Shown here: positions 7,862 through 39,408 of the stretch, in pieces
Layout: each line of letters starts with the position of its first letter
Numbering within the stretch: position 1 is the first letter of the stretch
Assembly: GCA_012799635.1 (NCBI GenBank)
Contig: JAAZKW010000034.1
Location: 9,930-73,929, forward strand
Source: Mollicutes bacterium
GTDB lineage: Bacteria > Bacillota_I > Bacilli_A > RF39 > UBA660
Direction: 5' to 3'
Length of the DNA: 64,000 bases
Made by a program: the position numbers and the translations under genes
The notes under the pieces: model-generated
The model's input: only the letters and a program-made list of their open reading frames with translations
The model's database searches: none
What the model was told of the DNA's origin: nothing

Positions 7862-8868
7862 ACTTCATCCACCTTCATAACTCTTTTGATAATAAATATG
7901 TATAAGAAGTACTGAACTACTAGTATTGCATCTATTACATAACCTGCTTTAGTATATATAAGAGGTTTAAAAAATTCTGGATTTAACATAACAATTAGAA
8001 AAACTAATACAAAAGGAACAATTAATAAAACATAATATAAAAGTTTGCTTGTTGCCAAAAGAGCATTAAGTTCGTTTTTAATTTTTAAGCGGTCATAAAA
8101 ATTGTTTTCTATCATATTAAATACCGATACTATATTACCTCCGGTTTTATTTAGTAATGCTAAAGATGAGGTAATCAGTTTTGCTTCTTCCAGATTAATT
8201 CTTTTATAAAATCTTTCAAACGCTGCTTCTACAGAAATACCATATTTTAAATCTTGATAAATAATATTAAACTCTGATTTAATGGGATTTGGTAATTCAG
8301 TTTTAACTATTTCAATAGCACCTAAAATATTTTTACCACTTTTAAAAGCACTATTCATAATTACTACGGCTTCAAGTAATTGTTCCGAAGTTAAATTTTG
8401 TCTTCTGGTATAAATGAAAAGAACAAAAAAGTCTATTAAAAAGAATCCAACAATTGAAATAATTATAAAATTATAAAAGTTAAAACTAATAATACGAAAT
8501 ATAATTGAAATAAAATATAAAAAGTCAATAAATAACATAACAATAAATTTTAAAGATATATAATCCATAGGTTCTATTGTATGTGATTCATCAAAAGCTA
8601 AATATTTAATAAAATGATTAGCATATTTAGTAAGGAATCGTGATTTACCTAAAAATGACGATATTTTTTTAATAATTTTATTTATATTACTAATAAATAC
8701 ATCGGTATATGAAAGGCCCACAATTTCATCACCATCAATTAAAAATGGCCTAAATCTTTTTTCGATTGATACACTTAAATAAAAGCGATAAATTATAAAA
8801 ACTAGTATTACCACTATAACACCTAACATTAAAGCAAATAATAATTGATTATTAATAGAACTAGTCAT
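7858..8868 (-). CDS. tadB: Tad/type II secretion system F-family inner-membrane protein (TadB-like)
   Basis: 336-aa polytopic membrane protein in operon position directly after the CpaF ATPase. Confidence 0.55.
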   Translation of the reverse strand: MTSSINNQLLFALMLGVIVVILVFIIYRFYLSVSIEKRFRPFLIDGDEIVGLSYTDVFISNINKIIKKISSFLGKSRFLTKYANHFIKYLAFDESHTIEPMDYISLKFIVMLFIDFLYFISIIFRIISFNFYNFIIISIVGFFLIDFFVLFIYTRRQNLTSEQLLEAVVIMNSAFKSGKNILGAIEIVKTELPNPIKSEFNIIYQDLKYGISVEAAFERFYKRINLEEAKLITSSLALLNKTGGNIVSVFNMIENNFYDRLKIKNELNALLATSKLLYYVLLIVPFVLVFLIVMLNPEFFKPLIYTKAGYVIDAILVVQYFLYIFIIKRVMKVDEV

Positions 8869-8879
8869 TTTTATCCTTT

Positions 8880-10199
8880 CTATTTAAACATATTTTTTAT
8901 TTCATCATAACCATAGGAGCTCATTTTTTCTAAACATTTTGGCTTTATCTTGTGCTTTTTATATACCCCATCTATTTCTTTGCTTTTTGTAACACCTATT
9001 TGTTCAAAAGTAAAGATATCATTTAATCTTATTTCTTCATTTTCAAAACCATCAACTTCACAAATAGCACTTATCTTTCTTTTACCATCAGAATATCTAT
9101 TCATATTAATAACGATATTAATAGCACTATTAATATATTCTCTAATAGCTTTAACAGGAAGTTCCATTGCTCCCATTAAAACCATTGTTTCAAGTCTATG
9201 TAAGGCATCTTTACAACCATTAGCATGAAGAGTGGTAATACTTCCTTCATGCCCTGTATTCATCGCTTGAAGCATATCAAAAGCTTCTTTATTCCTAACT
9301 TCTCCTACTATTATACGATCAGGTCTCATACGAAGAGAGTTTCTTACTAAATCTCTAATTGTAATTTCACCACTTTTTTCATAATTAGTTGTCCTTGTTT
9401 CAAGACTTATTACATGAGGTTGCGTTAAACGAATTTCTGCAGCATCTTCAATAGTAATTATTCTTTCATCTTCATTTATAAAGGCACTTAAAACATTTAA
9501 TAATGTTGTTTTACCTGATCCTGTTCCACCACAAACAATTATATTTAATTTAGATTTAACTGCAGCTTCCAAAAATACTGCCATCTCTGTTGTTAAAGAA
9601 CCAACTCTTAATAATTCTTCAATATTATTCATTGATTTTTTAAATTTTCTTATTGTCATAACAGGACCTTTAGTAGATAACGGTGGAATTACGGCATTTA
9701 TTCTAGAACCATCTTTTAATCTTGAATCCACCATAGGACTTGAAGAATCAATTGTTCTTCCCATTGGCTCAACTAATCTTTGAATAGTTCTGATAATATG
9801 CTCATCATTAATAAATGATATACTATCATCTTTAATAAGATTTCCTTCAAGTTCTATGTATATTTCATGAGGTGAATTAACCATTATTTCTGTTATATTT
9901 TCGTCTTTTAAAAGTTCAGTTAAGGGACCATACCCTTTTATTTCATTATCAATCAAATTAAATAAATGATTTTTTTCAAGACTACTTAAATTATATTCAG
10001 CAATAGCTTTATCAATCTGAAAATTTATAAAATCTTCCACACTATCATCTGTAACATTATTATCAATAATATTTTCAACTATCTTCATTCGAAGACTATC
10101 AAGTAAATCTTTATCTTCAAAAACTTCATAATCATTTACTAAGCTAGTATTACTTTTTATTTGATCATATTTAAATGCTTCTCTTAAATTACTTTTCAT
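8880..10199 (-). CDS. cpaF: CpaF/TadA-type secretion ATPase (VirB11/PilT-like superfamily)
   Basis: Walker A CGGTGSGKTTLLN, Asp box IITIEDAAEI, RPDRIIVGEVR, and a His box. Size (439 aa) and N-terminal domain fit CpaF. Confidence 0.85.
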   Translation of the reverse strand: MKSNLREAFKYDQIKSNTSLVNDYEVFEDKDLLDSLRMKIVENIIDNNVTDDSVEDFINFQIDKAIAEYNLSSLEKNHLFNLIDNEIKGYGPLTELLKDENITEIMVNSPHEIYIELEGNLIKDDSISFINDEHIIRTIQRLVEPMGRTIDSSSPMVDSRLKDGSRINAVIPPLSTKGPVMTIRKFKKSMNNIEELLRVGSLTTEMAVFLEAAVKSKLNIIVCGGTGSGKTTLLNVLSAFINEDERIITIEDAAEIRLTQPHVISLETRTTNYEKSGEITIRDLVRNSLRMRPDRIIVGEVRNKEAFDMLQAMNTGHEGSITTLHANGCKDALHRLETMVLMGAMELPVKAIREYINSAINIVINMNRYSDGKRKISAICEVDGFENEEIRLNDIFTFEQIGVTKSKEIDGVYKKHKIKPKCLEKMSSYGYDEIKNMFK

Positions 10200-10956
10200 C
10201 TTTTACCCCCATTAAATCCACACAAATATTAGTAAATGCAAGAGATGCTCTGGGATAACTTTTAGCAAAATTTGATTCTAAAGTTAAAATCTTACCATCT
10301 ATTAAATAATTATCGTAATTTTTTATATAAAAGTTTGTTCCTAATGTGTAATCAATGTTACATTTCATAATATTTCTTAAATCAAACAAACTGAAATAAC
10401 TCTTATGAGGATATACTGAATTATTAAGTAATACTTTATACTTAGTTAAATTATTTTCTTCGAATATCTTTAACAAATTATACATATTTTTAATATTAAC
10501 TAAGTCATTACAACAAACTAATAATATTTGATCAACAATATCAAGAACAGTTATATTAAATTCATTTAAATTGTGATTAAGATCCACTAAAATATAATCA
10601 TATTCATAAAGAGCATTAGTAATTATATGCTCAATATGTTTTGACGATACCTTAACTCCTTGTCTTGGATCTGAAGGTGCGGCTAAAAAAGAAATATATT
10701 CATTATATTTTGTTGCATAATTATCTATTGCCTTAAATCTATTATTAGTATAATCATCAACAAAATTATATATTGATTTTTTAAAAGACCTATTTAAAGA
10801 TGTTCCTACAGCACCACTTGTTAAATCAAAATCAATAATTAAAACTTTTTTATTCATACCAGCAAAAACACCAGCAACATTTAAAAGAACTGTCGTTTTA
10901 CCAACGCCTCCTTTAGTTGAAAATACACATAAACTTTTTCCTTTGCTTTTTCCCAT
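10189..10956 (-). CDS. CpaE/TadZ-like ParA/MinD-family ATPase (pilus assembly localisation ATPase)
   Basis: Deviant Walker A STKGGVGKTT, 255 aa, located immediately upstream of cpaF. Confidence 0.7.
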   Translation of the reverse strand: MGKSKGKSLCVFSTKGGVGKTTVLLNVAGVFAGMNKKVLIIDFDLTSGAVGTSLNRSFKKSIYNFVDDYTNNRFKAIDNYATKYNEYISFLAAPSDPRQGVKVSSKHIEHIITNALYEYDYILVDLNHNLNEFNITVLDIVDQILLVCCNDLVNIKNMYNLLKIFEENNLTKYKVLLNNSVYPHKSYFSLFDLRNIMKCNIDYTLGTNFYIKNYDNYLIDGKILTLESNFAKSYPRASLAFTNICVDLMGVKDEK

Positions 10957-10959
10957 ATT

Positions 10960-11325
10960 TTATCCCTTTTTAATCTTTATTACATTATCTTCTTTTGTAC
11001 CTATCAAAGAAGTTCTAATAATGTAATAATTCTTACCTATAACTTTACCAAGTAAACTATCTATTTTAATTTCTATTTTAATATGTAACCCTTCCTCAAA
11101 AGATATCTCTATTTTTTCATATTCAATATTATTATCATTATATAGTTTTATTATATCATCTTTATCATTTCTTTCAATAGAAGTTTTAATAATCGTTCTT
11201 GTAATGGAATTTAATTTAACTTTATTATATGTTATTAATGATGTATCAATAATAACAGCACATGCAAGTAATAATAAAGGAAGAATTATAATAAATAAAG
11301 CAAGTGTTTGACCTTTATTATTCAT
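10960..11325 (-). CDS. TadE-like pseudopilin
   Basis: MNNKGQTLALFIIILPLLLLACAVIIDTSL is a TadE/Flp-like N-terminus. Confidence 0.5.
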   Translation of the reverse strand: MNNKGQTLALFIIILPLLLLACAVIIDTSLITYNKVKLNSITRTIIKTSIERNDKDDIIKLYNDNNIEYEKIEISFEEGLHIKIEIKIDSLLGKVIGKNYYIIRTSLIGTKEDNVIKIKKG

Positions 11326-11626
11326 ATATTATCCTTTTAATAAGGACTTTATGTTCTTGTCCTAAAACAGGTGTTAAAAATGGTGAATAAATATCCACTT
11401 TGTTAGATAAAATATATATTTTATAATTTTCTTTGCTTTCAATTACAAATTCATATTCACTAGAAAGAGCATAGCTTTCATCGGAAATTAAATTTTCTAA
11501 TGTAAGTTCTAAATTGCTTTTATTTTGCATTATTCTTACGTAATCTAAAGTAGCAATTAATAGCATTATAAAAACGGGTACAACGATAATAAATTCGACT
11601 AAAGCCTGACCCTTTTTATTCATCAT
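11318..11626 (-). CDS. TadE-like pseudopilin
   Basis: MMNKKGQALVEFIIVVPVFIMLLIATLDYV shows the G/xxxVEF TadE signature. It is the first gene of the operon; a TTGCAT...TATAAT promoter and an RBS lie in 11627-11731. Confidence 0.6.
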   Translation of the reverse strand: MMNKKGQALVEFIIVVPVFIMLLIATLDYVRIMQNKSNLELTLENLISDESYALSSEYEFVIESKENYKIYILSNKVDIYSPFLTPVLGQEHKVLIKRIIYE

Positions 11627-11731
11627 ATCACCTACTATATTATATTATAGTTAATTTTATCTAAAAATTCAATTATATTTCATTGATTAAAGAACAAAAA
11701 TGCAATATAATTATTTAAAGGAAGGTATTAG

Positions 11732-12418: not shown

Positions 12419-13909
12419 TTACATGCTCATGGTTTTTTCTGGTTCAATTACCTTTTCTTGTTCCAAAGTTATTTGCAAAGCATCATAAACGCTAATTTTT
12501 ATTAAATAATCTATATAATTATATGGATAAATCCCAGATATACTATCTGCAGGAATTTGATAATCGTCCGTATATTGTTTTTGCATTTCTTTTGTTAAAC
12601 AATCATTTGTAGGTTCTGAATTTATTTTACTTAAAATTTCTTCCACTTGCAACTCTATATCACTTGGAAGAATAATCCCAATTTTATTTAATTCTTCTCT
12701 TATTTGTCTAATAATTAAATCAATACCATAATCAGTAGATGTAGAAGGCGAAAAATAAACCGGCCGAACAATATCTAAATATTCTTTTCTAGTAAAATAA
12801 GTTTTAGTTTCATGAGTTTTTTTAATAAATTCAATAAAACAATTTATATCATCAAAATATTTTTCTCTTGCAGCATCTATAGTATTAAAATGTGGTTCTA
12901 TTGGAAGATTAGGCATGATTTTTTTTAACATTTCATAGTATTTAGCATCATTCCCTGAAAGCCATTCCCACGAAGTAGCTTGTTCAACATGTTTCCCAAG
13001 CAAACCTACTAAAGCATTGGCATATCCTGAAACTTTTTGTCCTTCATAAGCAACAACTATTATATTAGGATTTTGTTTTTTAACACTCTTTATATCTTCT
13101 TTAGGACAAAGAAAAATAGCTTCTGGAGGTAATTGAATTCCACCTTCAAAATAAGTATCAACAACTACACCAGATTTTAAATTTTCAAGTGGCATTTTAT
13201 CAAATGGAATCACAACTGCATACCTACAATTGTCCCAATTACCTAGTCCATGATTTCCTACCTCTGAATTAACTGAAAAATGAAGTGTGTTCCTATTTCT
13301 TGTAAACTTATATTCGCCAACTTTATTCATTCCAAAGAAACCTTTATGAATTAATCCGGTTTCTTTCAGAGTTCTAATTCTTCCACCAGATGGAATATAT
13401 CTTGTTTTATGAACTAAAACAAAATCTTCTAAACCATTATACCTTTCGGGGTTATTTTGGGTTGTTTTATCTTTTTCACTTAAAGTGATGGTTATACCAT
13501 TTGCATCAGCTAAAGATATTAATTCTGAAAAACTCAAATTAAAATCTGCTAATTTTTCTTTTTCTTGATATAACCGAGTTATTTTTTTAATTATTTCATT
13601 TCTATCTTTAAATAAAGATATACATCTAGATAATAATAATTTCTTTTCCTCTAATAACTCAATATGCTCTTTTAATTTTTTAATTCCTTTAGGATTAAAT
13701 AATCTTTTTAAAAAACTCCTTTGATTTATTTTAGCTTCATTTAAAAGTTGTTCATGCTCATTATAAACTGCCTGTATTTCTTCCAACATTGTGTTACAAT
13801 CTAAGCTCAACTTTTCTAACAATTCTTGTATTTGCTTATTATAACTTATTAATTCCTCATTTTCTTTTAGTTCTTTTTGACAAAGAATTTCTCTTAATTG
13901 TTCAATCAT
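12419..13909 (-). CDS. Hypothetical cytoplasmic protein (496 aa), coiled-coil N-terminus, no recognisable family
   Basis: Long uninterrupted ORF downstream of ileS on the same strand. No signal peptide or TM segment. Confidence 0.4.
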   Translation of the reverse strand: MIEQLREILCQKELKENEELISYNKQIQELLEKLSLDCNTMLEEIQAVYNEHEQLLNEAKINQRSFLKRLFNPKGIKKLKEHIELLEEKKLLLSRCISLFKDRNEIIKKITRLYQEKEKLADFNLSFSELISLADANGITITLSEKDKTTQNNPERYNGLEDFVLVHKTRYIPSGGRIRTLKETGLIHKGFFGMNKVGEYKFTRNRNTLHFSVNSEVGNHGLGNWDNCRYAVVIPFDKMPLENLKSGVVVDTYFEGGIQLPPEAIFLCPKEDIKSVKKQNPNIIVVAYEGQKVSGYANALVGLLGKHVEQATSWEWLSGNDAKYYEMLKKIMPNLPIEPHFNTIDAAREKYFDDINCFIEFIKKTHETKTYFTRKEYLDIVRPVYFSPSTSTDYGIDLIIRQIREELNKIGIILPSDIELQVEEILSKINSEPTNDCLTKEMQKQYTDDYQIPADSISGIYPYNYIDYLIKISVYDALQITLEQEKVIEPEKTMSM

Positions 13910-17057: not shown

Positions 17058-17290
17058 ATTCCCTCCATAAAAAAAGGTAATACCAAAGGGCGAAAACCGC
17101 GGTACCACCTTTATTTTTTCTTAATAATTTAACGCTTCTTAGCGTCTTATCTTACTGTGTTTTCAGATAAGAAGTTTACAAGTGATCTAGATATATCATC
17201 ATTACTAATTTTCATCAACCATCAGCTTTCTTAAAACTTTAATATATCCCCTCTTGGTCATAACTTTTAAACAATACATTCATTTTAATA
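17058..17290 (-). promoter_or_regulatory. T-box riboswitch leader of ileS with its promoter
   Basis: Minus-strand sequence AAUAAAGGUGGUACCGCGG matches the conserved T-box. It is followed by a terminator hairpin, AAGGUGGUACC...GGUAUUACCUU plus a U-run, directly before the ileS RBS. Candidate specifier AUC-A lies in ...UAGAUCACU.... A promoter TTGCAG-N17-TAAAAT sits at about 17282-17310. Confidence 0.8.
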
Positions 17291-17453
17291 TAAATATTGT
17301 AAAACTGCAAGAGTTATTGACTAACTTTGTTATTTATCAAAGTAAATGCAATAAATAATAAAATCTAAGTCTTTTATATTTTTACTTTTTAGGACTCGAA
17401 AAAAACAACACTTCTTAATGAAAGAATATCATCACTAAATACATATTAGTACA

Positions 17454-17759
17454 TTATTGTAAATCATCACGTGATATTCTTGAAATAGCTATATCATTTT
17501 CGTATTCTATAAAAGTTAATTTCTTGTTATTATCAAAAAAATATTTAGAAAGTGATACATATATAGGATTTATCTCATTTAATTTATTAATAGTCTCTTG
17601 ATTCAAAGGCTTTAACAAATCATTAATAATGATTTCTTCATTTCCGATATCAAAATTTTCAAAACCATTTCCATTATTATTAATTTTAACATTATAACCA
17701 AATTTTATAATATTAGTCTTCCCAAACAAATTAATATTTCTTTTTATAATATATTTCAT
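17454..17759 (-). CDS. Hypothetical protein (101 aa)
   Basis: ORF only, no motif recognised. Confidence 0.25.
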   Translation of the reverse strand: MKYIIKRNINLFGKTNIIKFGYNVKINNNGNGFENFDIGNEEIIINDLLKPLNQETINKLNEINPIYVSLSKYFFDNNKKLTFIEYENDIAISRISRDDLQ

Positions 17760-17840
17760 AATATCACTTCTTTCTAAAAAAGGGGAAAGTAAAACTACTA
17801 CTCACCAATAATTTAAATTATACTTTTCACAAAACTTCTT

Positions 17841-17864
17841 AAAATAAAAAGAGATTACTCTCTT
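17841..17864 (-). terminator. Rho-independent terminator after yneF
   Basis: Minus-strand hairpin AAGAGA-GUAA-UCUCUU followed by a U-run. Confidence 0.45.
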
Positions 17865-18072
17865 ATTTAAATCGATTCATTTGACTCATAACTTGTTTAA
17901 CTTGCTTAGCAGATGGTTTTCTTCCCATACTACTCATCATAGCTTCAATCATTTTCTCATTAATTGGTGGGTTTTCAGTAAGTTGTTTTTTCATCAACTG
18001 TTTAGAAATTATAAATCCAATAATTATCCCTACAACTAAAGAGCCAATACTCCATAATATTGTTTCTAACAT
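17863..18072 (-). CDS. yneF: UPF0154 family small membrane protein (YneF-like)
   Basis: A TM helix followed by ENPPINEKMIEAMMSSMGRKPSAKQVKQVM, collinear with Bacillus YneF. A GGAG RBS is present. Confidence 0.75.
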   Translation of the reverse strand: MLETILWSIGSLVVGIIIGFIISKQLMKKQLTENPPINEKMIEAMMSSMGRKPSAKQVKQVMSQMNRFK

Positions 18073-18128
18073 TTTCTATCTCCTTAACTGATATTTTACT
18101 ATAATTAGATTATTCTAGCAACCTCTCT

Positions 18129-20117
18129 TTAATCAAAATTTTTCTTTATTCGATATAAAATAGAATTATAATCAAAATTTAAATATTTAAGAACATCATC
18201 TTTTTTACCAGATATACCAAACTCATCAACACCAATAGCACAATCTTTGTTTGTTGCAAAACGATTCCATATCATTGATGAACCTGCTTCTAAGGTAATA
18301 ATTTTGACTTCTTTAGGGAAAAGCTTTTCCTCATAAATAGGAGTTTGTTTTAAAAACAATTCCATACATGGCATAGATACTACCCTAAGATCTATTCCTT
18401 GAGTAAATAATTCCTCTGCAGCTTTTAATGCAATAGCTACTTCAGATCCTGTCGCAATAAGTACTCCAGATAATTTTTCTTTTTCTTTTCTAACAATATA
18501 AGCTCCATATTGAACATATTTTCCGTTTGTATGCTTATTAACAATCATTTTTTCTTTAGAAATAATTAAACACGAAGGTCCTTTATTTTTTAAAATATAT
18601 TCCCACGAACCAATAATCTCCTTAATATCACAAGGCCTAAACACCTTCATATTAGGAATACTACGAAGCATAGTAAGTTGTTCTATTGGTTGAAAGGTTG
18701 GACCATCTTGGCCAATAGAAATGCTATCATGAGTAAAGATATAAGTGATTGGTAAATTCATCATAGCACTAACTCTCATCGCAGGTTTCATATAATCAGC
18801 AAAAGCTAAAAATGTTGAGGAAAAAACCCTAAGGCCACAAAGGGCCATGCCACCTAGAATACCAGCCATAGCATGTTCTCTAATTCCAAAAGCAATATTT
18901 TTAGCAAGAGGGTTTTCCGAAGATGAAATGCCACTTTTTGTAAAATAAGCTTTTGTTAAAGTTTTAATATTACTAGAGCCACCTAAAAAGAATTTAGTCT
19001 TCGGAGAAATAAAATTAAGCACCTTTTGATTTGATAATCTTCCGTCTTCAAAATAATCGTTATTAATTTTATAATTATTACTATCAAAATCAATAATAAA
19101 TTGATCATTCTCAAGTAAATTAATCATATATACTAAATCAGGATTCCTACTTTTCTTAGCTTTATCATATTCTTTTAACCAAGCTTCATATTTTTTAGAA
19201 ACTCTTTTATCAATAGAACTTATTATCTCTTCTTTTATTTTTTCATCATAACTAAAAGATTCTTTTGGAAGTCCATATTTAACTTTTAAATCGATAATAT
19301 CTTTTTCATCAAGACCTCCAGCATGAAGGATATTATTATTTTCTTTTTTTAAATCTTTACCCAAAATTGTTTTAAAAATAATTATAGAAGGATACTTACT
19401 TCTTTTAGCTTCTTTTATAGCACTACTCACTTCATTTAAATTATGACCATTTTTAACATATATCACATTAAAGTCTAAAGCATCAAAACGATCTTCAATA
19501 TCTTCGATAGTTGAATTATATGTTGGCCCATCTGCATTCATATCATTACTATCATATAAAACAATTAATTTATTTAGTTTTTGCTTAGCTGCAAAAGCAA
19601 GTGCTTCATAACTAATACCTTCATCTAAATCACCATCGCTACATAAAACATAAGTATAAAAATCAATTAATTTACTTTTTGGATCAACCTTTTTACTTAA
19701 ATTTTCATAATATCTTTCTGCCATAGCAACACCAACTGCAGTTGCAATTCCTTGACCAAGAGGGCCAGTTGTTGCCTCAATTCCTAATTCTGGATCCATT
19801 TCTGGATGGCCTGGAGTAAACGAATCTATTTGTCTAAACCTTTTTAAATCCTCTAAGGAAAGATTATAACCTGCTAAATGAAGCATAGAATAATACATAG
19901 CAGAGCCATGACCACATGACATAATAAAACGATCCCTATTAATCCATTTAGGAATTTTACTAATGGTATTTAAATGATTTAAATAAAGACTATATAAAAT
20001 TGGTGACGCACTAAGGACAATACCAGGATTACCACTTTCTGCTTCATTTATCATATCAAGAGCTAGTAATTTTACAGTATTAAGTTTTTTATCGTTCCTT
20101 ATTGCCATATATATCAC
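18129..20117 (-). CDS. tkt: Transketolase
   Basis: 662 aa. ThDP-binding GHPE...GPLGQGI...CSDGDLDEG motifs. Confidence 0.9.
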   Translation of the reverse strand: MIYMAIRNDKKLNTVKLLALDMINEAESGNPGIVLSASPILYSLYLNHLNTISKIPKWINRDRFIMSCGHGSAMYYSMLHLAGYNLSLEDLKRFRQIDSFTPGHPEMDPELGIEATTGPLGQGIATAVGVAMAERYYENLSKKVDPKSKLIDFYTYVLCSDGDLDEGISYEALAFAAKQKLNKLIVLYDSNDMNADGPTYNSTIEDIEDRFDALDFNVIYVKNGHNLNEVSSAIKEAKRSKYPSIIIFKTILGKDLKKENNNILHAGGLDEKDIIDLKVKYGLPKESFSYDEKIKEEIISSIDKRVSKKYEAWLKEYDKAKKSRNPDLVYMINLLENDQFIIDFDSNNYKINNDYFEDGRLSNQKVLNFISPKTKFFLGGSSNIKTLTKAYFTKSGISSSENPLAKNIAFGIREHAMAGILGGMALCGLRVFSSTFLAFADYMKPAMRVSAMMNLPITYIFTHDSISIGQDGPTFQPIEQLTMLRSIPNMKVFRPCDIKEIIGSWEYILKNKGPSCLIISKEKMIVNKHTNGKYVQYGAYIVRKEKEKLSGVLIATGSEVAIALKAAEELFTQGIDLRVVSMPCMELFLKQTPIYEEKLFPKEVKIITLEAGSSMIWNRFATNKDCAIGVDEFGISGKKDDVLKYLNFDYNSILYRIKKNFD

Positions 20118-20208
20118 TTCCTAAGTATATATTTTAACATGTAAATCAAAGTTAGTAAATTGAATAAAGTTTTTTAATTAAAAAACATATCCTTTAATAG
20201 GATATATT

Positions 20209-20730
20209 TTAATTATATTTTAAACAACAACCATCTTTATCACAATAACAGTCTACTAATCCCATTCTATGTTCACCACAATTTGTAGCAGCGCTTGTTC
20301 CTTCAGCTGCTTGATCAGATTTATAATTACTTACAAGGACATCATCAAATACATAAGTACCATCAGATATGGAGAAATAATAATTATATTTACCTGAATC
20401 ATATTCTACAAAAACTGAACCAGTATATTTATCCCCTGGATTATCATCTTCTGTCCACATTCCAGAACCTTTAGTAAAATAGCCATATTTATAAAGATAT
20501 TCCAAATCAAAACAAATATCACTATTCGAACTAAAAGAACCATTTAATTGTTCAAATTGATATGCATTTTTAGCTGCTTCCACTGCTGAAAGCCCTTCAA
20601 GTCCTAAAGATGATTTCTTAGCTCTTCCCACTAATGGTCCTATCGCTGTTACACCAATTAACATTACTACTGAAAGTATTGTTATTATTGCTAAAAGTTC
20701 TATTAAAGTAAATCCTTTATTATTTTTCAT
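20209..20730 (-). CDS. Type IV pilin-like protein (prepilin cleavage/methylation N-terminus) with a Cys-rich C-terminal tail
   Basis: MKNNKG|FTLIELLAIITILSVVMLIGV. C-terminus CGEHRMGLVDCYCDKDGCCLKYN has 6 Cys in 23 aa. Confidence 0.7.
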   Translation of the reverse strand: MKNNKGFTLIELLAIITILSVVMLIGVTAIGPLVGRAKKSSLGLEGLSAVEAAKNAYQFEQLNGSFSSNSDICFDLEYLYKYGYFTKGSGMWTEDDNPGDKYTGSVFVEYDSGKYNYYFSISDGTYVFDDVLVSNYKSDQAAEGTSAATNCGEHRMGLVDCYCDKDGCCLKYN

Positions 20731-20789
20731 TAAGCCTCCACAATATAATGTTATTTTAGCATATTAATTTTGTTTAATGAATAATTACA

Positions 20790-20825
20790 AACAAAAAAAT
20801 AGAGATACTTGTAATATCTCTATTT
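20790..20825 (-). terminator. Rho-independent terminator between the paralog genes and the pilin gene
   Basis: AAATAGAGATA-(7 nt loop)-TATCTCTATTT, followed on the minus strand by TTTTTTT. Confidence 0.6.
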
Positions 20826-20828
20826 TAT

Positions 20829-22085
20829 TTATTCTGTTCTAATTATTTTCAAAAATAAATCATTTGTACTAGGATTCGTTGGCGAAGAAATTAAGTTATC
20901 TCCTGCATCCAGTAAATCAGATGCTACTCTAAATGTATTACCATCTTCATCTATTACCTGAGCATATACCAAATATTTTCCACCTGCTACTGCTTCTGTG
21001 TTACCTAAATCAGATAATTCTATTTCATCTAGAAGGTTATCATAAACAGGTACTTCGGAAAAATCTTCGTATTTATCTACAAGTTCTATACATTCCCCAT
21101 TATTATATTGCATTCTCGTTGCCATATAATCTAATTGATCTAAACTAGGAGATACAGGATTATGTTTTTGATATAAAAGTAAGAAATCTTTAATACTAAA
21201 ATGATCATTATGCATCCAGTCTTCAAAATATCGATATAAAGAAGCTTCTATTAACTTATATTTTTGAGTATTTTCATCTGTTACGTTTATTTTTAATTTA
21301 TCATTTTCAAAAGATGCATTTAAAGTTAAATCATTTCTAACTGAGGCAACAGAACTATACAAAGTACTATTTCCATACACAGGAGATACCGGAGGAGCTC
21401 CTTCTAAAACTTCTAGTTTTAAATATATTTTTTTAGAGTTTCCTACTTTATCAACAACATTTATATATGGATAGCCTATAACTGTGTAATTTGATATATC
21501 AGGATTAAATGTTACTTCTATTCCTTGAACGTCCCACATACCAGTTGCTTCTTGTTCTAATAAATTTAAACTCATTGATTCAAAACCAACTTCATCTGGA
21601 TAATAAAACTCTTGTGTCCCAAAGACCTTTGCATTTTTACCATCACTAAAACTATAATATTCTACTCCAGCATCAAGAAGAGGTGTCCATTTCCAAAGAT
21701 TGATTTTATCACTTTGAAAAATGTAACTTGTTGTCGTCTTGGAATAAAAACTTTTTATTACTGGAATTGTATACATATTATAATAGTTAATATTTGCAAT
21801 TAAATGTTCTTCATTAACTAACTTTTCTTCACCAGTTAGTCCATCAATAAAACTACCATCGGCTCTTTTATATATAACTGTTGTTCCATTTGGTACACCT
21901 TTTGATGTCATAGAAGCAAAAGTTAAATCCTCAGTTGTTAAAACTCCACCATAGTTATTACTACCATCTCTAGTAAATAGATGTTTCCCTATAACATAGG
22001 AATTTGGTGGTATTTCCAGTAGTGCATTAACTTTGAAAGTACCAATGATGAATAATAATATTGCTAATAATATTTTTTTCTTCAT
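20829..22085 (-). CDS. Secreted protein, paralog 2 of a tandem pair (418 aa)
   Basis: Signal peptide MKKKILLAILLFIIGTFKVNA. About 65-70% identical to the upstream gene, with shared blocks FESM(S/G)LNLLE, GYPY(I/V)NVVD and LDEIELSDLGN. Confidence 0.6.
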   Translation of the reverse strand: MKKKILLAILLFIIGTFKVNALLEIPPNSYVIGKHLFTRDGSNNYGGVLTTEDLTFASMTSKGVPNGTTVIYKRADGSFIDGLTGEEKLVNEEHLIANINYYNMYTIPVIKSFYSKTTTSYIFQSDKINLWKWTPLLDAGVEYYSFSDGKNAKVFGTQEFYYPDEVGFESMSLNLLEQEATGMWDVQGIEVTFNPDISNYTVIGYPYINVVDKVGNSKKIYLKLEVLEGAPPVSPVYGNSTLYSSVASVRNDLTLNASFENDKLKINVTDENTQKYKLIEASLYRYFEDWMHNDHFSIKDFLLLYQKHNPVSPSLDQLDYMATRMQYNNGECIELVDKYEDFSEVPVYDNLLDEIELSDLGNTEAVAGGKYLVYAQVIDEDGNTFRVASDLLDAGDNLISSPTNPSTNDLFLKIIRTE

Positions 22086-22097
22086 TTCTTTCTCCTT

Positions 22098-23357
22098 TTA
22101 TATACCAGTAAGCCTATAAAATAAAGCACTTGTACCGGGATCTGCCGGTTGAGAAACTAAATTAGTTCCTGCTTCCTGTAGATAAGATGCCACTTTAAAT
22201 ATATTCCCATCTTCATCTACTACCTGAGCATATATCAAATATTTTCCACCTGCTACTTCTTCTCTGTTACCTAAATCAGATAATTCTACTTCATCTAAAA
22301 GGTTATCATAAACTGGGTCTATAGAAAAATCTTCATATTTATCTACAATTTCTAAATATGTACCATTAAAACTTTTTAATCTATAAATAAAGTAAAAAAC
22401 AGACATTGGATAATCCATATCACCACCATCAGCTTGCACCAAATTCGCAAAATCCAAAAGATTAAAATGCTCATGAGACACATCTTCAAAATATCGATAT
22501 AAAGAAACTTCTATTAACTTATATTTTTGAGTGTTTTGATCTGTTACATTTATTTTCAATTTGTTATTTTCAAAAGTTCCATTTATAGTTAAATCATCTC
22601 TAACCGAAGCAACACTGGTATATAACTTACTATTTCCATAAAAATAAGGAAATCCTTCTTCAATATAATGAAGGTTAAGGTCATAATCAAGTTCTAAATA
22701 TATTTTTTGAAGTTTTCCTACTCTATCAACTACGTTTACATATGGATAACCGATAACTGTATAATTTGATATATCGGAATCAAATGTTACTTCTACTCCT
22801 TGAACACCCCACATACCAGTTGCTTGTGGTTCTAATAAATTTAAACCCATTGATTCAAATCCGTCTTCATCTGGATAATAAAATTCTTGAGTTCCAAAAA
22901 TTCTTGCATTTTTACTATCACTAAAACTATAATACTCTACTCCAGCTGCAAGATAAGTATCTGGGTCCCAATAACTAGTAGCTATAACATCATTTTGAAA
23001 AATATAACCTGTTGCTGTTTTTGAATAAAAACTCTTTATTATTGGAATTTCTTTTAAATTATAATACTTAATCTCAGCAAGCAAATACTCTTCATCAGCA
23101 TATAATAATAATTCACCAGTTAACCCATCAATATAACTACCATCAGCTCTTTTATAAAAAAGCCGATTGTCCCAAGCGCTTTGAGCAGCCATCATTAAAT
23201 GTTGAGTTGTCAAAACTCCATCATATTCATTACTACCATCTCTAGTAAATAGATATTCCCCTAAAACATAGGAATTTGGTGGTATTTCCAATAATGCATT
23301 AACATTATAAATACCAAAGATGAACATTAAAATTGCTAATAATATTTTTTTCTTCAT
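22098..23357 (-). CDS. Secreted protein, paralog 1 of a tandem pair (419 aa)
   Basis: Signal peptide MKKKILLAILMFIFGIYNVNA. Collinear with the downstream paralog. Confidence 0.6.
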   Translation of the reverse strand: MKKKILLAILMFIFGIYNVNALLEIPPNSYVLGEYLFTRDGSNEYDGVLTTQHLMMAAQSAWDNRLFYKRADGSYIDGLTGELLLYADEEYLLAEIKYYNLKEIPIIKSFYSKTATGYIFQNDVIATSYWDPDTYLAAGVEYYSFSDSKNARIFGTQEFYYPDEDGFESMGLNLLEPQATGMWGVQGVEVTFDSDISNYTVIGYPYVNVVDRVGKLQKIYLELDYDLNLHYIEEGFPYFYGNSKLYTSVASVRDDLTINGTFENNKLKINVTDQNTQKYKLIEVSLYRYFEDVSHEHFNLLDFANLVQADGGDMDYPMSVFYFIYRLKSFNGTYLEIVDKYEDFSIDPVYDNLLDEVELSDLGNREEVAGGKYLIYAQVVDEDGNIFKVASYLQEAGTNLVSQPADPGTSALFYRLTGI

Positions 23358-23367
23358 TTTTTCTCCT

Positions 23368-24648
23368 TTATTCTCTATTAGCCGTTACTCTTCTTCCATT
23401 TATTAGTACAACTGTAACAGCATTTATTCCCTCAACATCAAACTTATTAATAGTTGGGTTTGACCCAGTACAAATTTTATTACCATTAACTTCTATAGAT
23501 GTAAAATTAATCTTTGTTCCATCTTCATAAACAGAAATTATTCTATCTGGGGAATAATCATCCACTAAGGTTACTTTAAATGTGTAACTTTTTTCAACCC
23601 AAGTTGCATTTAAAACAATATTACCAGTAACTGCTTGATTAAAATCATAATTACTTCCATTTAATTGCCAGCTACCAAAATTATAACCCTCTTTTGTTGG
23701 ATTATTTGGTTTTGTTACTTTATTGCCCTCTGTAACAGTTTGTGATGGAACACTACTTCCGCCATTACTATTGAAAATTACTGAATAACTATTTATAACT
23801 ACTTCTTTCCAACGAGCTACTAAAGTTATGTTACTATTAACTTTCAAACTAAAATTATACTTGCTTCCATCTAAATACCAACCTTCAAATGTATATCCAC
23901 TTCTTGTTGGATTTTTTGGCTGTACTGCAGTTTTTCCTGCAATCACTCTTTGTGTTGCAACACTATTTCCTCCATCGCTGTTAAATTTAACCTCATATCT
24001 TTTTACATTTGGATCTTCTTTCCACTTTGCTACTAATGTTATATTTCCAGTAACTACAGTATTAAAATCATATTTTTTATTATTCAAATACCAGCCATCA
24101 AAAATATAACCTTCTTTCTTCATATTATTAGGTTCAGATACTTTACCACCAACATTAACCGTTTGATTGTTAACTCTTGTACCTCCATTTGAATTAAATT
24201 TCACAGTATAAGATGATACCTTTTCATATTTTCCTTCGATTGTTAAATCCTTAGTTATTGGTGTAGTAAGGTCATATTCCTTACCATCAACATACCATAC
24301 AAGAGCATAGCCACTTCTATCCTCAAAACCTAATTCTGACACGTTGATTTCACTACTTTCACTAACTTCAATTGTTTTTGTTTTACCTTCAACATTAAAT
24401 GTAAGTTTATATTTTTCTGCTTCTTCATCTGATTTTGTCCAAATAGCTTTTAATGTCATATTTTCTTTTACTGTGCTTGAAAAATCATATTCTTCATCAT
24501 TATATTCCCATCTGACAAAATCATATTCCTCTTTTGTTGGATCATCAGGTTTAATTACTTTTCCACCTTTTTTAACCGTTTGGATTGGAATTTCACTTCC
24601 GCCATCAGTATCAAAAGTCACTTTATAACCTCTTGTACTTAAAAGCAA
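23368..24648 (-). CDS. Surface protein with about 5 Listeria-Bacteroides (Flg_new-type) repeats; the body of a gene whose signal-peptide exon is out of frame upstream (24626-24718)
   Basis: Repeats xYxVxFNSNGGxxVxxQTVxxGxKVxxPxNPTKEGYxFxGWYLNGxxYDFNxxVTGNITLxAxW recur five times. The ORF only begins at a TTG, with no signal peptide of its own. An upstream 31-codon ORF MSSKATMIIAGFIAALIALLSSFFAFKYKRL* with a GGAGG RBS is in the +1 frame. Confidence 0.65.
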   Translation of the reverse strand: MLLSTRGYKVTFDTDGGSEIPIQTVKKGGKVIKPDDPTKEEYDFVRWEYNDEEYDFSSTVKENMTLKAIWTKSDEEAEKYKLTFNVEGKTKTIEVSESSEINVSELGFEDRSGYALVWYVDGKEYDLTTPITKDLTIEGKYEKVSSYTVKFNSNGGTRVNNQTVNVGGKVSEPNNMKKEGYIFDGWYLNNKKYDFNTVVTGNITLVAKWKEDPNVKRYEVKFNSDGGNSVATQRVIAGKTAVQPKNPTRSGYTFEGWYLDGSKYNFSLKVNSNITLVARWKEVVINSYSVIFNSNGGSSVPSQTVTEGNKVTKPNNPTKEGYNFGSWQLNGSNYDFNQAVTGNIVLNATWVEKSYTFKVTLVDDYSPDRIISVYEDGTKINFTSIEVNGNKICTGSNPTINKFDVEGINAVTVVLINGRRVTANRE

Positions 24649-24653
24649 AAAAA
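24647..24653. repeat. A7 (T7 on the coding strand) homopolymer at the junction between the signal peptide and the repeat-protein body
   Basis: With 7 T the reading frame terminates after 31 aa. With 6 (or 9) T the frames fuse into MSSKATMIIAGFIAALIALLSSFLLLSTRGYKVTFD.... Confidence 0.7.
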
Positions 24654-24786
24654 GAACTCAACAAAGCAATTAATGCTGCGATAAAACCAGCAATTATCAT
24701 TGTTGCCTTGCTACTCATTTTTTTCCTCCTTTCCCTCAAAAAAACAAATCGCACATTACTAAAGCTACCTTTAGTATGTTAGCAAC

Positions 24787-24877
24787 ATTGTACTAAAAGT
24801 ATTACCTCAATGTCAATCTTTTTATGTTTTGATTAATAAAAACATTTGTTTGACTTTTATGTAATACTATAATAGAA
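24787..24877. promoter_or_regulatory. Divergent promoter region between lexA and the surface-protein cluster, with a candidate LexA operator
   Basis: Plus strand: TTGACT-N17-TAGAAT upstream of lexA. Minus strand: TTGACA-N18-TACAAT upstream of the repeat-protein gene. Palindrome AAACATTTGTTT (about 24840-24851) resembles a degenerate Cheo box GAAC-N4-GTTC and overlaps the lexA -35. Confidence 0.4.
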
Positions 24878-24896
24878 TTTAATTATAAAAAGGAGT

Positions 24897-25526
24897 TTGA
24901 AAATGGAGAAAAACCTTTCTAAAAGACAAAAAGATGTTTTAGATTTTATAAAAAAATATAGTGCTAAAAATGGTTATCCTCCTACTATAAGAGAAATATG
25001 TAAAGGAGTGGGCTTATCTAGTACTGCTACTGTCTTTGTTCATGTTAAAAATTTAGAAAACCTCGGAGTTTTAAAAAGTAGTAACAATAAATTTCGTACT
25101 TTAGAACTTCTAGTTGATAATGAATACGAAAAGAAAAATGAAGAAGTAGTTAAGGTACCTCTTCTTGGAAAAGTAACTGCAGGTAATCCTATTACTGCCA
25201 TTGAAATGCCTAATGAATTTTTCTTCCTTCCTTCATATTTAGTGCCTCCTTCTAAAGAAATATTTACCTTACATGTATCTGGAGATAGTATGATAAATGC
25301 TGGAATATTTGATAATGATTATGTTATTGTTCAAAGACAAAAAAATGCTAATAATGGACAAATTGTAGTCGCTATGAATAATGACAATGAGGTTACTTTA
25401 AAAAGATTTTATAAAGAAAAGGGACATATTAGATTACAACCTGAAAACGATACCATGGAACCCATTATCCTTGATGATTGTGAAATCCTTGGCATCGCTA
25501 TCGGTCTTTATCGCAAAATAAAATAG
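24897..25526 (+). CDS. lexA: LexA repressor (S24 peptidase)
   Basis: N-terminal winged-HTH, catalytic Ser in SGDSMINAGI and Lys in VTLKRF, 209 aa. Confidence 0.9.
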   Translation: MKMEKNLSKRQKDVLDFIKKYSAKNGYPPTIREICKGVGLSSTATVFVHVKNLENLGVLKSSNNKFRTLELLVDNEYEKKNEEVVKVPLLGKVTAGNPITAIEMPNEFFFLPSYLVPPSKEIFTLHVSGDSMINAGIFDNDYVIVQRQKNANNGQIVVAMNNDNEVTLKRFYKEKGHIRLQPENDTMEPIILDDCEILGIAIGLYRKIK

Positions 25527-28518: not shown

Positions 28519-30279
28519 TTATGTATCCAAATCATTATATTCTTCGCTGCCACCACCACTAAAATCAATTTTAATAGTAAGGTTGCCACCTGATTTAGGT
28601 ATTTCACTTCCTGCTGCTCTACTTTGAGACAAAATAGCATTATTATTATAATTTGTAGCATTATTATTATTAATCTCTAAGTCATTACCACCATTATCTT
28701 TAAATGTTACCATAACTTTATATTGATTACAAAAATCAAGAATATCAATTACTTTATAAGTTCCATCTGTAAAATCCGGATATACATTAGTAACTGTAGC
28801 TATATACAACGTTATTATGTCTCCTTTAGTTAATAATTCACCCTTTTCAACTGATTGTCTTACAATCTCATTTTCATGATATTCTTTACCAGAATCTTTT
28901 TCTATTTCTTCTTCTTCAACAGTAACACTAATTCCAAATGCTTCAAGCATTCCTTTAACTTCATAAAAGTTTTTACCGGTATAATCCTCTATTTCAATTG
29001 AATTAGTACCTGATGATATATATATTGTTACATCTGCTCCTTTTTTTACTTTACTATTTGCTGATGGAGTAGTTCTTGTTATTGAGCCTTTCTCAATATC
29101 CTCTGAAGGCTCTACAATTCTATCTTTTATTTCAAACCCTTCATCTTGAAGTTTTTTTACAGCTTTCTTTTCACTCATACCTTCAACATCTGGAATATAT
29201 TTATTGTTTGATTTATTAATATATGGAAGAAGTACAACTATAGTTGTAATTAAAACAACAATAGAAGTAAATACAGAAAATAAAATTACTAAAGTTTTAT
29301 TTTGACTTTTTATCGTTCCTTCAGCCATTTTTTTGGCTATCAATTCATCACTTTCAGCTTTTGATAATTTAGTATCTTTTAATGTTTTCATAATTTTACT
29401 ATCATCACGTTCTTTTTCAGGATAAGTATATTCAATCTCCTCTTCATTTTTTCTAGAATCTTCTAGGCATGTTAATAAATCTTCATGCATCTCCCTTGCA
29501 TCAGCATACCTATTTTTAGGGTTCTTTGCAGTTGCTCTTTTAATAATGTTACAAATGCTTTGAGGTATATTTAAAATTTCATCTTTAATCAAAGGCATCG
29601 GTTCTTTTAATTGTTTCAAAGCTATTTCAACAGCATTATCTCCTTTAAAAGGAAGTTTTCCAGTAAGAAGTTCATACATTAAAATACCAAGAGAATAGAT
29701 ATCACTTTGAAGTGTTGCACCTTTTCCAGAAGCTTGTTCTGGAGGAAGATAATGAACTGAACCCATTACTGAATTAGTTTGCGTAAGCTGAGTTGAATTC
29801 ATAGCAACGGATATACCAAAATCCGTAAGTTTTACAATCCCGTTTTCTAAAATCATTATATTTTGGGGTTTAATATCTCTATGAATAATATATGAATCAT
29901 GGGCAACAGAAAGACCTGAGGTAACTTGAAGTAAAATATCTACAACTTCATTTACAGTAAGTTTTCCTCTTCTTTTAAGTAAATTCTTTAGATGTTTACC
30001 TTCAATATATTCCATGACAATATAATAATCACCATGATCTTCTCCAACATCATATACTTCAACAATATTCTTATCATTTAAACTGCTTGCCTGAAGAGCT
30101 TCTCTTTGAAAACGCCTAACAAATTTTTCGTCTAAAGAAAGATCTCCACGTAATATTTTTACAGCTACATTACGTTCTAATATAGTATCTTTAGCTAAAT
30201 AAACATTAGCCATACCACCTTCGCCAATTGTTTTAATTATTTGATATCTATCACTAATTTTCTGCCCCTTAGCAATCAC
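28519..30279 (-). CDS. prkC: Ser/Thr protein kinase with a TM segment and an extracellular PASTA-like region
   Basis: Hanks kinase motifs VAVKIL, HRDIKPQN, DFGIS, SVHYLPPE; a TM helix; a C-terminal extracellular domain. Confidence 0.88.
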   Translation of the reverse strand: MIAKGQKISDRYQIIKTIGEGGMANVYLAKDTILERNVAVKILRGDLSLDEKFVRRFQREALQASSLNDKNIVEVYDVGEDHGDYYIVMEYIEGKHLKNLLKRRGKLTVNEVVDILLQVTSGLSVAHDSYIIHRDIKPQNIMILENGIVKLTDFGISVAMNSTQLTQTNSVMGSVHYLPPEQASGKGATLQSDIYSLGILMYELLTGKLPFKGDNAVEIALKQLKEPMPLIKDEILNIPQSICNIIKRATAKNPKNRYADAREMHEDLLTCLEDSRKNEEEIEYTYPEKERDDSKIMKTLKDTKLSKAESDELIAKKMAEGTIKSQNKTLVILFSVFTSIVVLITTIVVLLPYINKSNNKYIPDVEGMSEKKAVKKLQDEGFEIKDRIVEPSEDIEKGSITRTTPSANSKVKKGADVTIYISSGTNSIEIEDYTGKNFYEVKGMLEAFGISVTVEEEEIEKDSGKEYHENEIVRQSVEKGELLTKGDIITLYIATVTNVYPDFTDGTYKVIDILDFCNQYKVMVTFKDNGGNDLEINNNNATNYNNNAILSQSRAAGSEIPKSGGNLTIKIDFSGGGSEEYNDLDT

Positions 30280-38043: not shown

Positions 38044-39408
38044 ATGTTTAAAAATAAAAAAATTCACTTTATTGGTATTGGTGGATCATCAATGAGTGGG
38101 ATTGCCGATATAATGCATAATAAAAACGCTATTGTAACGGGTTATGACTTAGTAGAAAGTAAAATAACAAAAAGATTAGTTAAAGAAGGAATTGATGTAT
38201 ATCATAAGCCTAATTTATCATATATAGATAATGCTGATATTATTGTTTATTCCGCTGCTATTAATGATAATTTTGAAGAATTAAAATATGCTCGGAAACT
38301 AAATAAAAAAATTTATGAAAGATCTGAATTTCTTGGAATATTAATGCAAGAATATGAAAATGTTTTATGTATCAGTGGAACGCATGGTAAAAGCACAACT
38401 ACTAGTATGATAGCAACTATTTTCTTAAAAGCTAATTTAAATCCTACTATATCTATTGGGGCTATGCTTCCTTTAATAAATGGCAATTATCATATTGGTA
38501 ATAATAAACATTTTATTGTAGAAGCTTGTGAATATGTAGATAGTTTTCTTGATTTTAAACCTACAAGTGCAATAATTTTGAATATTCAGACTGATCACAT
38601 AGACTATTTTAAAAATCTAGACAATATTATTAAATCTTTTAATAAGTTTGTAAAACTCCTTCCTAAAAATGGTTATTTAATTGTAAATAATGATGATAAA
38701 AATACTTTGAAAGCTGTTTGTAATCATGAAAAAACAACATATGGTATTAATAACGATTCTAATTACATGGCTAAAAATATTAAATTTGATAAATTGGGAT
38801 ATCCATCATATGATTTGTATATAGATAATATAAATATTAATAGAGTCAATCTTAATGTATTAGGTAAACATAATATTTATAACTCTCTTGCCGCTATTGC
38901 TCTTTCACATAAATATATTAATGATATATCATTAATTGTATCAGCATTGAAATTTTATAAAGGCATTGAAAGAAGATTTGAATACTTGGGTAAATTTAAA
39001 TCAGCTAATGTTTTTGATGACTATGCCCATCATCCAAATGAAGTAGAAAGTATTTTAGATCTAATTAAAAAAACGAAACATAACAGAAGTATTGCTGTTT
39101 TTCAACCTCATACATATTCTAGAACTAATGCCTTCTTAAAAGATTTTGCTAATATATTAAAAGATTTTGATTGTATTATAATTGCACCTATATATGCTGC
39201 TAGAGAGGAAAACATTTATAACATTAAAGAAGATGATTTATTAAAACTAATTAAAGAAGAAAATGAAAATGTTGTTTTTATTGATTCGTTTGAAAAGATT
39301 ATAAACTTTTTAGATAAAAAGGTTCAAAAGGATGATATAATTGTAACAATGGGAGCTGGTGATATAACACTACTAGCCCACATGTTAGTAGGTGATAATA
39401 ATGGATGA
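38044..39408 (+). CDS. murC: UDP-N-acetylmuramate--L-alanine ligase
   Basis: IHFIGIGGSSMSGIA, GTHGKSTTTSMIA; an extended -10 TGTATAAT and GGAG RBS lie upstream. Confidence 0.9.
   Translation: MFKNKKIHFIGIGGSSMSGIADIMHNKNAIVTGYDLVESKITKRLVKEGIDVYHKPNLSYIDNADIIVYSAAINDNFEELKYARKLNKKIYERSEFLGILMQEYENVLCISGTHGKSTTTSMIATIFLKANLNPTISIGAMLPLINGNYHIGNNKHFIVEACEYVDSFLDFKPTSAIILNIQTDHIDYFKNLDNIIKSFNKFVKLLPKNGYLIVNNDDKNTLKAVCNHEKTTYGINNDSNYMAKNIKFDKLGYPSYDLYIDNININRVNLNVLGKHNIYNSLAAIALSHKYINDISLIVSALKFYKGIERRFEYLGKFKSANVFDDYAHHPNEVESILDLIKKTKHNRSIAVFQPHTYSRTNAFLKDFANILKDFDCIIIAPIYAAREENIYNIKEDDLLKLIKEENENVVFIDSFEKIINFLDKKVQKDDIIVTMGAGDITLLAHMLVGDNNG

Follow-up and report, generated by a model that had tools for sequence, protein, structure and literature searches.

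Natural T6 and T7 alleles of a Listeria-Bacteroides-repeat surface-protein gene in an uncultured bacterium labelled Mollicutes

Results

A repeat-protein gene is interrupted at a run of seven Ts

We analysed a 64,000-nt stretch of contig JAAZKW010000034.1 (NCBI assembly GCA_012799635.1, Mollicutes bacterium, forward-strand positions 9,930 to 73,929), hereafter the window, and concentrated on a minus-strand gene for a protein with Listeria-Bacteroides (Flg_new) repeats, which is broken by a frameshift in a run of seven Ts. The predicted sigma-70-type promoter of this gene lies at 24787-24816 (TTGACA, 18-nt spacer, TACAAT), with 11 of 12 matches and the top score within 20000-25000. Further downstream, a GGAGG ribosome-binding site (24725-24729) is followed after six As by an ATG at 24718. 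The spacer and the A of this ATG form an A7 run (24718-24724) that shows no variation among the loci we retrieved. Translation from the ATG gives a 31-aa open reading frame (ORF; 24623-24718), MSSKATMIIAGFIAALIALLSSFFAFKYKRL, which ends at a TAA (24625-24623). In the T7 allele this ORF forms the 5' part of the split gene and encodes a predicted hydrophobic membrane-anchor or export segment. Gene callers left this ORF uncalled in every fetched locus; its GTG-extended version measures 43 aa.

The 3' body of the gene is found in the +1 frame of the same strand (23368-24648). This frame opens directly after a TGA at 24660-24658, ends at 23368 and encodes 426 aa from its first start codon, a TTG at 24648, or 417 aa from a GTG at 24621. 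The public annotation (NMA51018.1) uses the GTG, which has an AAGAGG 7 nt upstream. The body contains four stretches of Flg_new repeats (PF09479/TIGR02543; E=2.5e-71, 236 bits against a cut-off of 27) and a conserved C-terminal domain of about 80 aa. No LPXTG motif was seen in the repeat protein, and in the T7 allele the body ORF lacks an export signal.

The homopolymer itself occupies 24647-24653 (A7 on the plus strand), within a 32-nt overlap (24626-24657) in which both frames are open and where any 1-nt deletion would fuse them. With six Ts the codons read TCT TTT TTG CTT TTA (S F L L L) and finish the anchor helix, while the T7 allele reads TCT TTT TTT GCT TTT AAG TAC AAG AGG TTA TAA. The initial annotation had described this same layout on the minus strand, from the GGAGG and ATG through the short ORF to a 426-aa body starting at a TTG in the +1 frame, and our reading matches it. 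It had also called the N-terminal segment a signal peptide. The hydrophobic character holds, with a stretch of about 20 residues and Kyte-Doolittle 19-residue means of up to 2.7. However, no AXA site or lipobox is present in this segment and, given its hydropathy, it seems more like a membrane anchor that is not cleaved off than a cleavable signal peptide. Nor does the T run lie exactly at a junction between signal peptide and mature domain, as had been proposed; it sits inside the last turn of the hydrophobic helix and not at a domain boundary.

The intact protein is encoded in related strains

We used the hypothetical T6 fusion as a query and recovered more than 3000 homologues, among them a 449-aa protein (P0001) at 100% identity and 100% coverage. 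The fusion, MSSKATMIIAGFIAALIALLSSFLLLSTRGYKVTFDTDGG..., thus exists in public assemblies as P0001 and P0123, the latter being exactly the fusion predicted from the window. Both belong to a protein cluster at 90% identity with four members, of which the other two are 417-aa proteins (P0121 and P0122) that differ solely by an M or a V at the GTG start. P0121 is NMA51018.1, deposited as 'MAG: InlB B-repeat-containing protein [Mollicutes bacterium]'. Pairwise DNA alignment across the junction revealed one T in the run as the only difference, T6 against T7. The natural allele difference therefore falls in the T run, although a deletion anywhere in the 32-nt overlap would have the same effect on the frame. 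These results confirm two proposals of the initial annotation, namely that the frame break corresponds to one additional T in the homopolymer and that loss of one T fuses the two ORFs.

More distant orthologues at 44-62% identity (P0009, P0064, P0079, P0090, L009 and L011) all carry an N-terminal anchor in frame. Their N-termini consist of a short polar stretch, a hydrophobic helix of about 20 residues and then the '(K)TY.V.FD..GG' of the first repeat, in a single frame. The T6 allele likewise has the hydrophobic stretch in frame, and the body ORF of T7 lacks it. As judged from these comparisons, the anchor ORF and the repeat ORF are halves of one gene. Because every distant orthologue has the in-frame anchor, the alignments identify the single ORF (T6) as the ancestral state and T7 as the insertion. 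A locus search with the fused protein returned only the distant orthologues L009-L011, which served as outgroups and contributed no further alleles.

Alternatively, the T7 allele could still yield the full anchored protein, by a +1 slip of tRNA-Phe on UUU UUU U or by transcriptional slippage. Re-pairing from UUU to UUU would be perfect, the next codon would be UUG and the product would be exactly the T6 protein; moreover, the clone that carries T7 is widespread (see below). However, the run has no Shine-Dalgarno-like sequence just upstream, the A-site codon is the common UUU rather than a rare codon or a stop, and the downstream RNA folds no better than shuffled sequences (z = -1.25). Nor is the shift conserved, because orthologues and sister strains have the gene in a single frame. 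Slippage during transcription generally becomes appreciable only at runs of about nine or more, which also counts against this possibility. We consider recoding very improbable.

Both alleles recur in several datasets

We then compared the T run across assemblies from other datasets. Seven Ts were found in the window, in L002 (SRR3184675), L003 (SRR5947259) and L013 (ERR10905742), and in two contigs of JGI 3300002170, each retrieved twice (10001259 as L004 and L014, 10002931 as L005 and L012). Six Ts were found in L001 (ERR14964776), L007 (ENA ERZ21942150) and L008 (ERR11584774). Among these, L007 and L008 share one protein and may come from one sample, and SRR3184675 and SRR3184649 are neighbouring accessions; a literature search on the run and sample accessions gave no match.

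The initial annotation had offered a sequencing indel as the alternative to a switch, in which case the true genome would be T6 and the extra T an error of this assembly. Homopolymers are indeed the commonest sites of indel errors, and the gene is otherwise intact. However, exactly seven Ts recur in at least four other datasets (SRR3184675, SRR5947259, JGI 3300002170 and ERR10905742) processed by different pipelines (Logan and JGI), while T6 was cleanly assembled in three others. In addition, the window has 107 other coding A/T runs of at least 7 nt, and no broken ORF is associated with any of them. Since both alleles recur across datasets and pipelines, we reject an assembly error, the chance of which we regard as negligible.

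The T7 loci are nearly indistinguishable from each other. They show no mismatch to the window over 3.5-8.9 kb, except L013, which has one in 7.9 kb (at 22128). The T7 carriers are thus one clone, which is found widely among the sampled metagenomes. The T6 loci L001 and L007 represent other haplotypes: L001 differs from the T7 clone by three single-nucleotide polymorphisms (SNPs) in 1.6 kb, and L007 by 21 SNPs in 4.4 kb. Tract state agrees with haplotype, with no sign of homoplasy.

Only T6 and T7 were seen. The protein cluster with its four members contained no T5, T8 or T9 allele, of which T9 would have clustered there. A length-tolerant pattern (T4-T12), which does match the window and the fetched loci, had no match in the metagenome and genome contig collections, which shows that the species is not in those two collections. 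A search through the TadA-like ATPase for more of the 34.6-kb T6 contig returned only contigs of the T7 clone. Contig L006 starts 24 nt downstream of the tract, which raised the possibility of a de Bruijn bubble there; k=31 predicts a break at about 24652 and not at 24623, and we drew no inference from it. The ends of L007 and L008 were likewise not taken as bubbles at the tract.

Two further observations concern contig structure around the locus. The JGI contigs 10001259 and 10002931, both T7, overlap over the locus for about 5.4 kb at 100% identity, and several Logan contigs (L002 and L013) stop at the same place, window position 25712, in an SH3-domain gene. These shared ends and the overlap hint at structural differences between strains, or at a repeat, just upstream of lexA.

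Runs of seven As or Ts are common in the window

The window has 25.4% GC and contains 115 A/T runs of at least 7 nt, about one per 560 nt, of which 107 lie within long intact ORFs, mostly of housekeeping genes. Compared with a geometric decay from the 4-mer count, runs of seven are not depleted (104 observed, about 81 expected), while runs of eight are three-fold depleted (11 observed against about 33, e.g. 7087-7094 and 12919-12926) and runs of nine or more are absent from the window (about 19 expected). This length cliff suggests either strong purifying selection on tracts of 8 nt and longer or a length-dependent jump in slippage rate. As 7-mers are tolerated in housekeeping genes and longer runs are purged, a 7-mer is probably not strongly hypermutable here. 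The coding runs are enriched at 5' ends, with 21 of the 107 in the first 10% of their gene (binomial p = 0.002). Across prokaryotes, A/T runs of up to 7 nt are similarly common in coding DNA and enriched towards the 5' end (Orsi et al., PMC2831843). The T7 tract taken alone is therefore no more than expected by chance; what makes the observation real is the existence of the frameshift and of an in-frame allele, not the length of the tract.

The A7 run at 24718-24724 and a T7 run in the 5' untranslated region (24738-24744), both less than 100 nt from the coding tract, were invariant in all fetched loci, as were the other A/T runs of at least 6 nt in the compared stretches. Among the 14 such runs comparable with L007, the coding tract was the only one with an indel. 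The initial annotation had proposed tract length at orthologous loci as a check of its switch. The closest orthologue for which we compared DNA has T4 at the homologous site and two others have no run; no run of at least 5 nt was found there in L009, L011 or L016. This comparison indicates that the family does not maintain the tract.

The gene heads a cluster of predicted secreted proteins

The repeat-protein gene is the first of a minus-strand cluster. Only 10 nt downstream lies a gene for a 419-aa protein (22098-23357) with a cleavable-looking signal peptide, followed by a tandem paralogue of 418 aa (20829-22085), also with a signal peptide. The two have no Pfam family and are 74% identical at the nucleotide level. 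The cluster ends with a type IV prepilin-like gene (20209-20730; N_methyl motif, MKNNKGFTLIE...). We found no terminator-like site within 20000-25000, and the 419-aa gene is probably co-transcribed with the repeat-protein gene.

In distant relatives, the Flg_new protein is likewise paired with larger proteins (L009 5804-9223; L011 4671-7031), and these share a common N-terminal 'IP..SYVIG.HLFTR' motif. The two paralogues of the window carry the related N-terminal sequence 'EIPPNSYV.G..LFTRDGSN', in common with proteins of 786-1139 aa encoded 3' of the Flg_new gene in those relatives. There, a small transmembrane protein with a 'VDDYSPDRI' domain is encoded between the two genes; in the window the same domain forms the C-terminus of the Flg_new protein. 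Based on these shared features, the genes at 20829-23357 and their counterparts in relatives represent a conserved but undescribed cluster of putative surface-protein genes.

Two sets of changes in this region suggest selection on operon expression and on antigenicity. First, the 418-aa gene differs between the T7 clone and L007 by 14 SNPs within 65 codons (21206-21398, codons 230-294), 11 nonsynonymous and three synonymous, while the adjoining 3.3 kb has no SNP. Gene conversion from the 419-aa paralogue does not account for the patch, as only six of the 14 variant bases match the paralogue. The patch looks hypervariable, positively selected or recombined. Second, L001, a T6 locus, carries a T to C change at 24792 (L001 position ~31) in the first base of the -10 box (TACAAT to CACAAT), which may be an independent route to lower expression of the operon.

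Upstream of the repeat-protein gene lies lexA, in divergent orientation. Within the intergenic region, AAAC-AAAT-GTTT at 24840-24851 overlaps the predicted lexA -35 element and resembles a degenerate Cheo/LexA box (GAAC-N4-GTTC), so that lexA is probably autoregulated. The candidate box lies 25 nt from the promoter of the divergent surface-protein gene.

The organism is probably walled

Although labelled Mollicutes in NCBI, the organism encodes MurC (a Mur ligase) and a PASTA-domain Ser/Thr kinase (38044-39408 and 28519-30279 for the Mur and kinase side), AddAB, LexA and a Tad-type pilus locus. The Mur ligase and the PASTA-domain kinase point to a cell wall, and we assign it to a probable walled Bacillota-type bacterium. 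TGA is a stop codon, as seen from long ORFs under table 11.

Several other features of the window were recorded. The Tad-type locus (7157-11325, with 11326-11731) encodes a ParA/TadZ-like ATPase, a T2SSE ATPase and two T2SSF proteins, and a TadE-like ORF of 101 aa called in L017 falls in the apparent gap at 11326-11731 of the window. More prepilin-like genes lie at 1954-2388 and, as described above, at the end of the cluster. The Ile-tRNA synthetase gene has a T-box leader upstream (17083-17270; 100.8 bits), and the roughly 850 nt before the leader (17271-18128) hold only two small ORFs called in L012, of 69 and 101 aa.

Discussion

We favour, with moderate confidence, the interpretation that T7 is a genuine natural frameshift allele of an anchored Listeria-Bacteroides-repeat surface-protein gene and a lineage-specific null allele of the inlA type, rather than a dedicated high-frequency switch. 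The ancestral T6 run (TCT TTT TTG, coding for Ser-Phe-Leu) lies where the anchor-coding segment ends, and replication slippage would have lengthened it by one T. Ribosomes translating the T7 allele would then make the 31-aa anchor peptide and stop, leaving the repeat body in the +1 frame with no signal for export or anchoring. At most, a cytoplasmic 417-aa product would be made from the GTG at 24621, helped by the AAGAGG upstream, and surface display of the repeat protein would be off. The insertion would have occurred once, in the ancestor of one clone, while sister strains of the same species retain T6 and the intact 449-aa ORF. A single event suffices because the T7 loci are one clone and T6 is found on other haplotypes wherever these can be resolved, with no homoplasy. 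Reversion would be possible in principle, at the low rate typical of A/T runs of 6-7 nt. Slippage as the mutational mechanism, the loss of export and the low switching rate are what we infer from these patterns.

The closest known system in tract length and population pattern is inlA of Listeria monocytogenes, in which a 5' poly(A) tract of A7 is in frame and A6 leads to a premature stop (Orsi et al. 2010, PMC2831843). Both inlA alleles occur in otherwise identical sequences, the OFF alleles have at least two independent origins, and the rates were 5.5e-7 for A6 to A7 and 3.9e-8 for A7 to A6 (PMC2831843), above point mutation and far below classical phase variation. As in inlA, we found a 1-nt indel in a short A/T run (6 or 7 nt) within the first 30 or so codons of a Bacillota surface protein, both alleles in near-identical natural strains, and an OFF allele that is confined to one lineage and leaves a tiny N-terminal peptide. 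In both cases the tract is not conserved across lineages and belongs to a class of run, up to 7 nt, that is common in coding DNA. The two systems differ in that the ON allele here is the shorter T6 and OFF the longer T7, whereas A7 is ON in inlA; the run is at the end of the hydrophobic anchor instead of at codon 5; and one origin was seen here, against at least two for the inlA OFF alleles. InlA is also a leucine-rich-repeat internalin with an LPXTG motif, in contrast to the Flg_new repeat protein with its N-terminal anchor.

Some observations weigh against a simple null allele. L008, with T6, is identical to the T7 clone over its full 1.7 kb except for the tract, and is too short to resolve its haplotype; L007 is identical to the T7 clone across the 3.3 kb nearest the tract. 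This near-identity means that the change between T6 and T7 is very recent on the scale of SNP accumulation, a pattern that a fast switch would also be expected to give. The lack of secondary damage in the ORF downstream of the frameshift in the T7 allele carries no information, as SNPs are essentially missing from the whole clone. According to the summary of Mycoplasma hominis vaa in PMC524362, tracts this short switch fast in Mollicutes-type organisms that lack mismatch repair. Finally, there are signs that diversifying selection acts on the neighbouring genes, and contingency loci are common in such settings.

The initial annotation had accordingly presented the locus as a classic phase-variation switch. 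T6 and T7 would then be the states of a reversible slipped-strand switch of surface display, for example for escape from phages or predators, with the present clone mostly OFF. Lengths in frame and out of frame do occur among near-identical strains, and tract length would decide expression, as T6 gives one 449-aa ORF and T7 a 31-aa ORF plus a body in the +1 frame. The tract is the sole run with an indel in the comparison with L007, and a position in the 5' export-signal region agrees with vaa, Gardnerella nanH3 and Neisseria opa, as far as these are described in PMC524362 and bioRxiv 10.1101/2020.09.16.300947. The excess of nonsynonymous changes in the paralogue and the -10 mutation of L001 fit such a locus as well, and these hints of selection on operon expression and antigenicity are why we retain a reversible switch as possible. 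However, tract state follows haplotype without homoplasy (L008 being too short to resolve), only two lengths were seen, and the tract is absent from orthologues. With 107 runs of equal or greater length in intact, mostly housekeeping ORFs, a hypermutable 7-mer would impose an intolerable load. Rates for A6/A7 are 1e-7 to 1e-8 in a mismatch-repair-proficient member of the Bacillota, and the present organism is a walled Bacillota-like bacterium and not a classical mycoplasma. The classic switch is thus not supported, and we regard a true contingency locus as doubtful.

Comparison with established switches is in line with this assessment. In M. hominis vaa, A8 is ON and A7 or A9 is OFF, with rates of 1e-3 to 1e-4 (Zhang & Wise 1997, as summarised in PMC524362). 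From that summary, vaa resembles the present gene: it encodes an adhesin-like surface protein, and its 5' coding region contains a short poly-A/T tract (7-9 nt) in which a 1-nt change shifts the frame and turns expression OFF. A further parallel is that the source metagenome-assembled genome (MAG) of our gene is labelled 'Mollicutes bacterium' in NCBI. By the same summary, vaa is reversible within clonal cultures, while the present locus was read from assemblies; in addition, our organism has peptidoglycan genes (MurC, PASTA kinase) and is not a wall-less mycoplasma.

In Gardnerella nanH3, a poly-C tract of C8-C14 closely follows the signal peptide; all strains have it, and it is heterogeneous within colonies (bioRxiv 10.1101/2020.09.16.300947). 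Here too a homopolymer adjoins the export-signal coding region, and out-of-frame lengths are annotated without a signal peptide, like the 417-aa NMA51018.1. The tract of nanH3 is, however, long and found in all strains, whereas ours is 6-7 nt and lineage-specific. For Neisseria opa, the description in the same preprint is of changes in CTCTT repeat number that act within the export-signal coding region and set the frame of the mature protein. That system is a pentanucleotide array in a multi-copy family with documented high-frequency switching, in contrast to a single short homopolymer.

More speculatively, a working switch in this uncultured AT-rich walled Bacillota bacterium would toggle display of the Flg_new protein under pressure from phages or predators, which we consider rather unlikely. 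Such a switch could possibly also toggle the accessibility of the two co-transcribed, fast-diversifying secreted paralogues, with OFF swept to dominance in one clone and the -10 mutation of L001 as a second route; this extension we likewise judge improbable.

Returning to the lineage-specific null allele, its consequences are practical rather than conceptual, as the mechanism has long been established. The 417-aa NMA51018.1, annotated as an 'InlB B-repeat-containing protein' and lacking an export signal, represents the tail of a frameshifted gene. Frameshifts at short homopolymers in MAGs can be accepted or rejected by comparing independent assemblies. If heterogeneity at the read level were found, homopolymer phase variation would extend to an uncultured Bacillota group that is not host-associated, and a working switch would mean that phase variation had been found in a non-pathogen purely from public metagenome assemblies. 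For the organism itself, the null allele, the -10 SNP and the nonsynonymous cluster suggest that, in an uncultured lineage, a surface-protein operon is subject to both on/off and diversifying selection.

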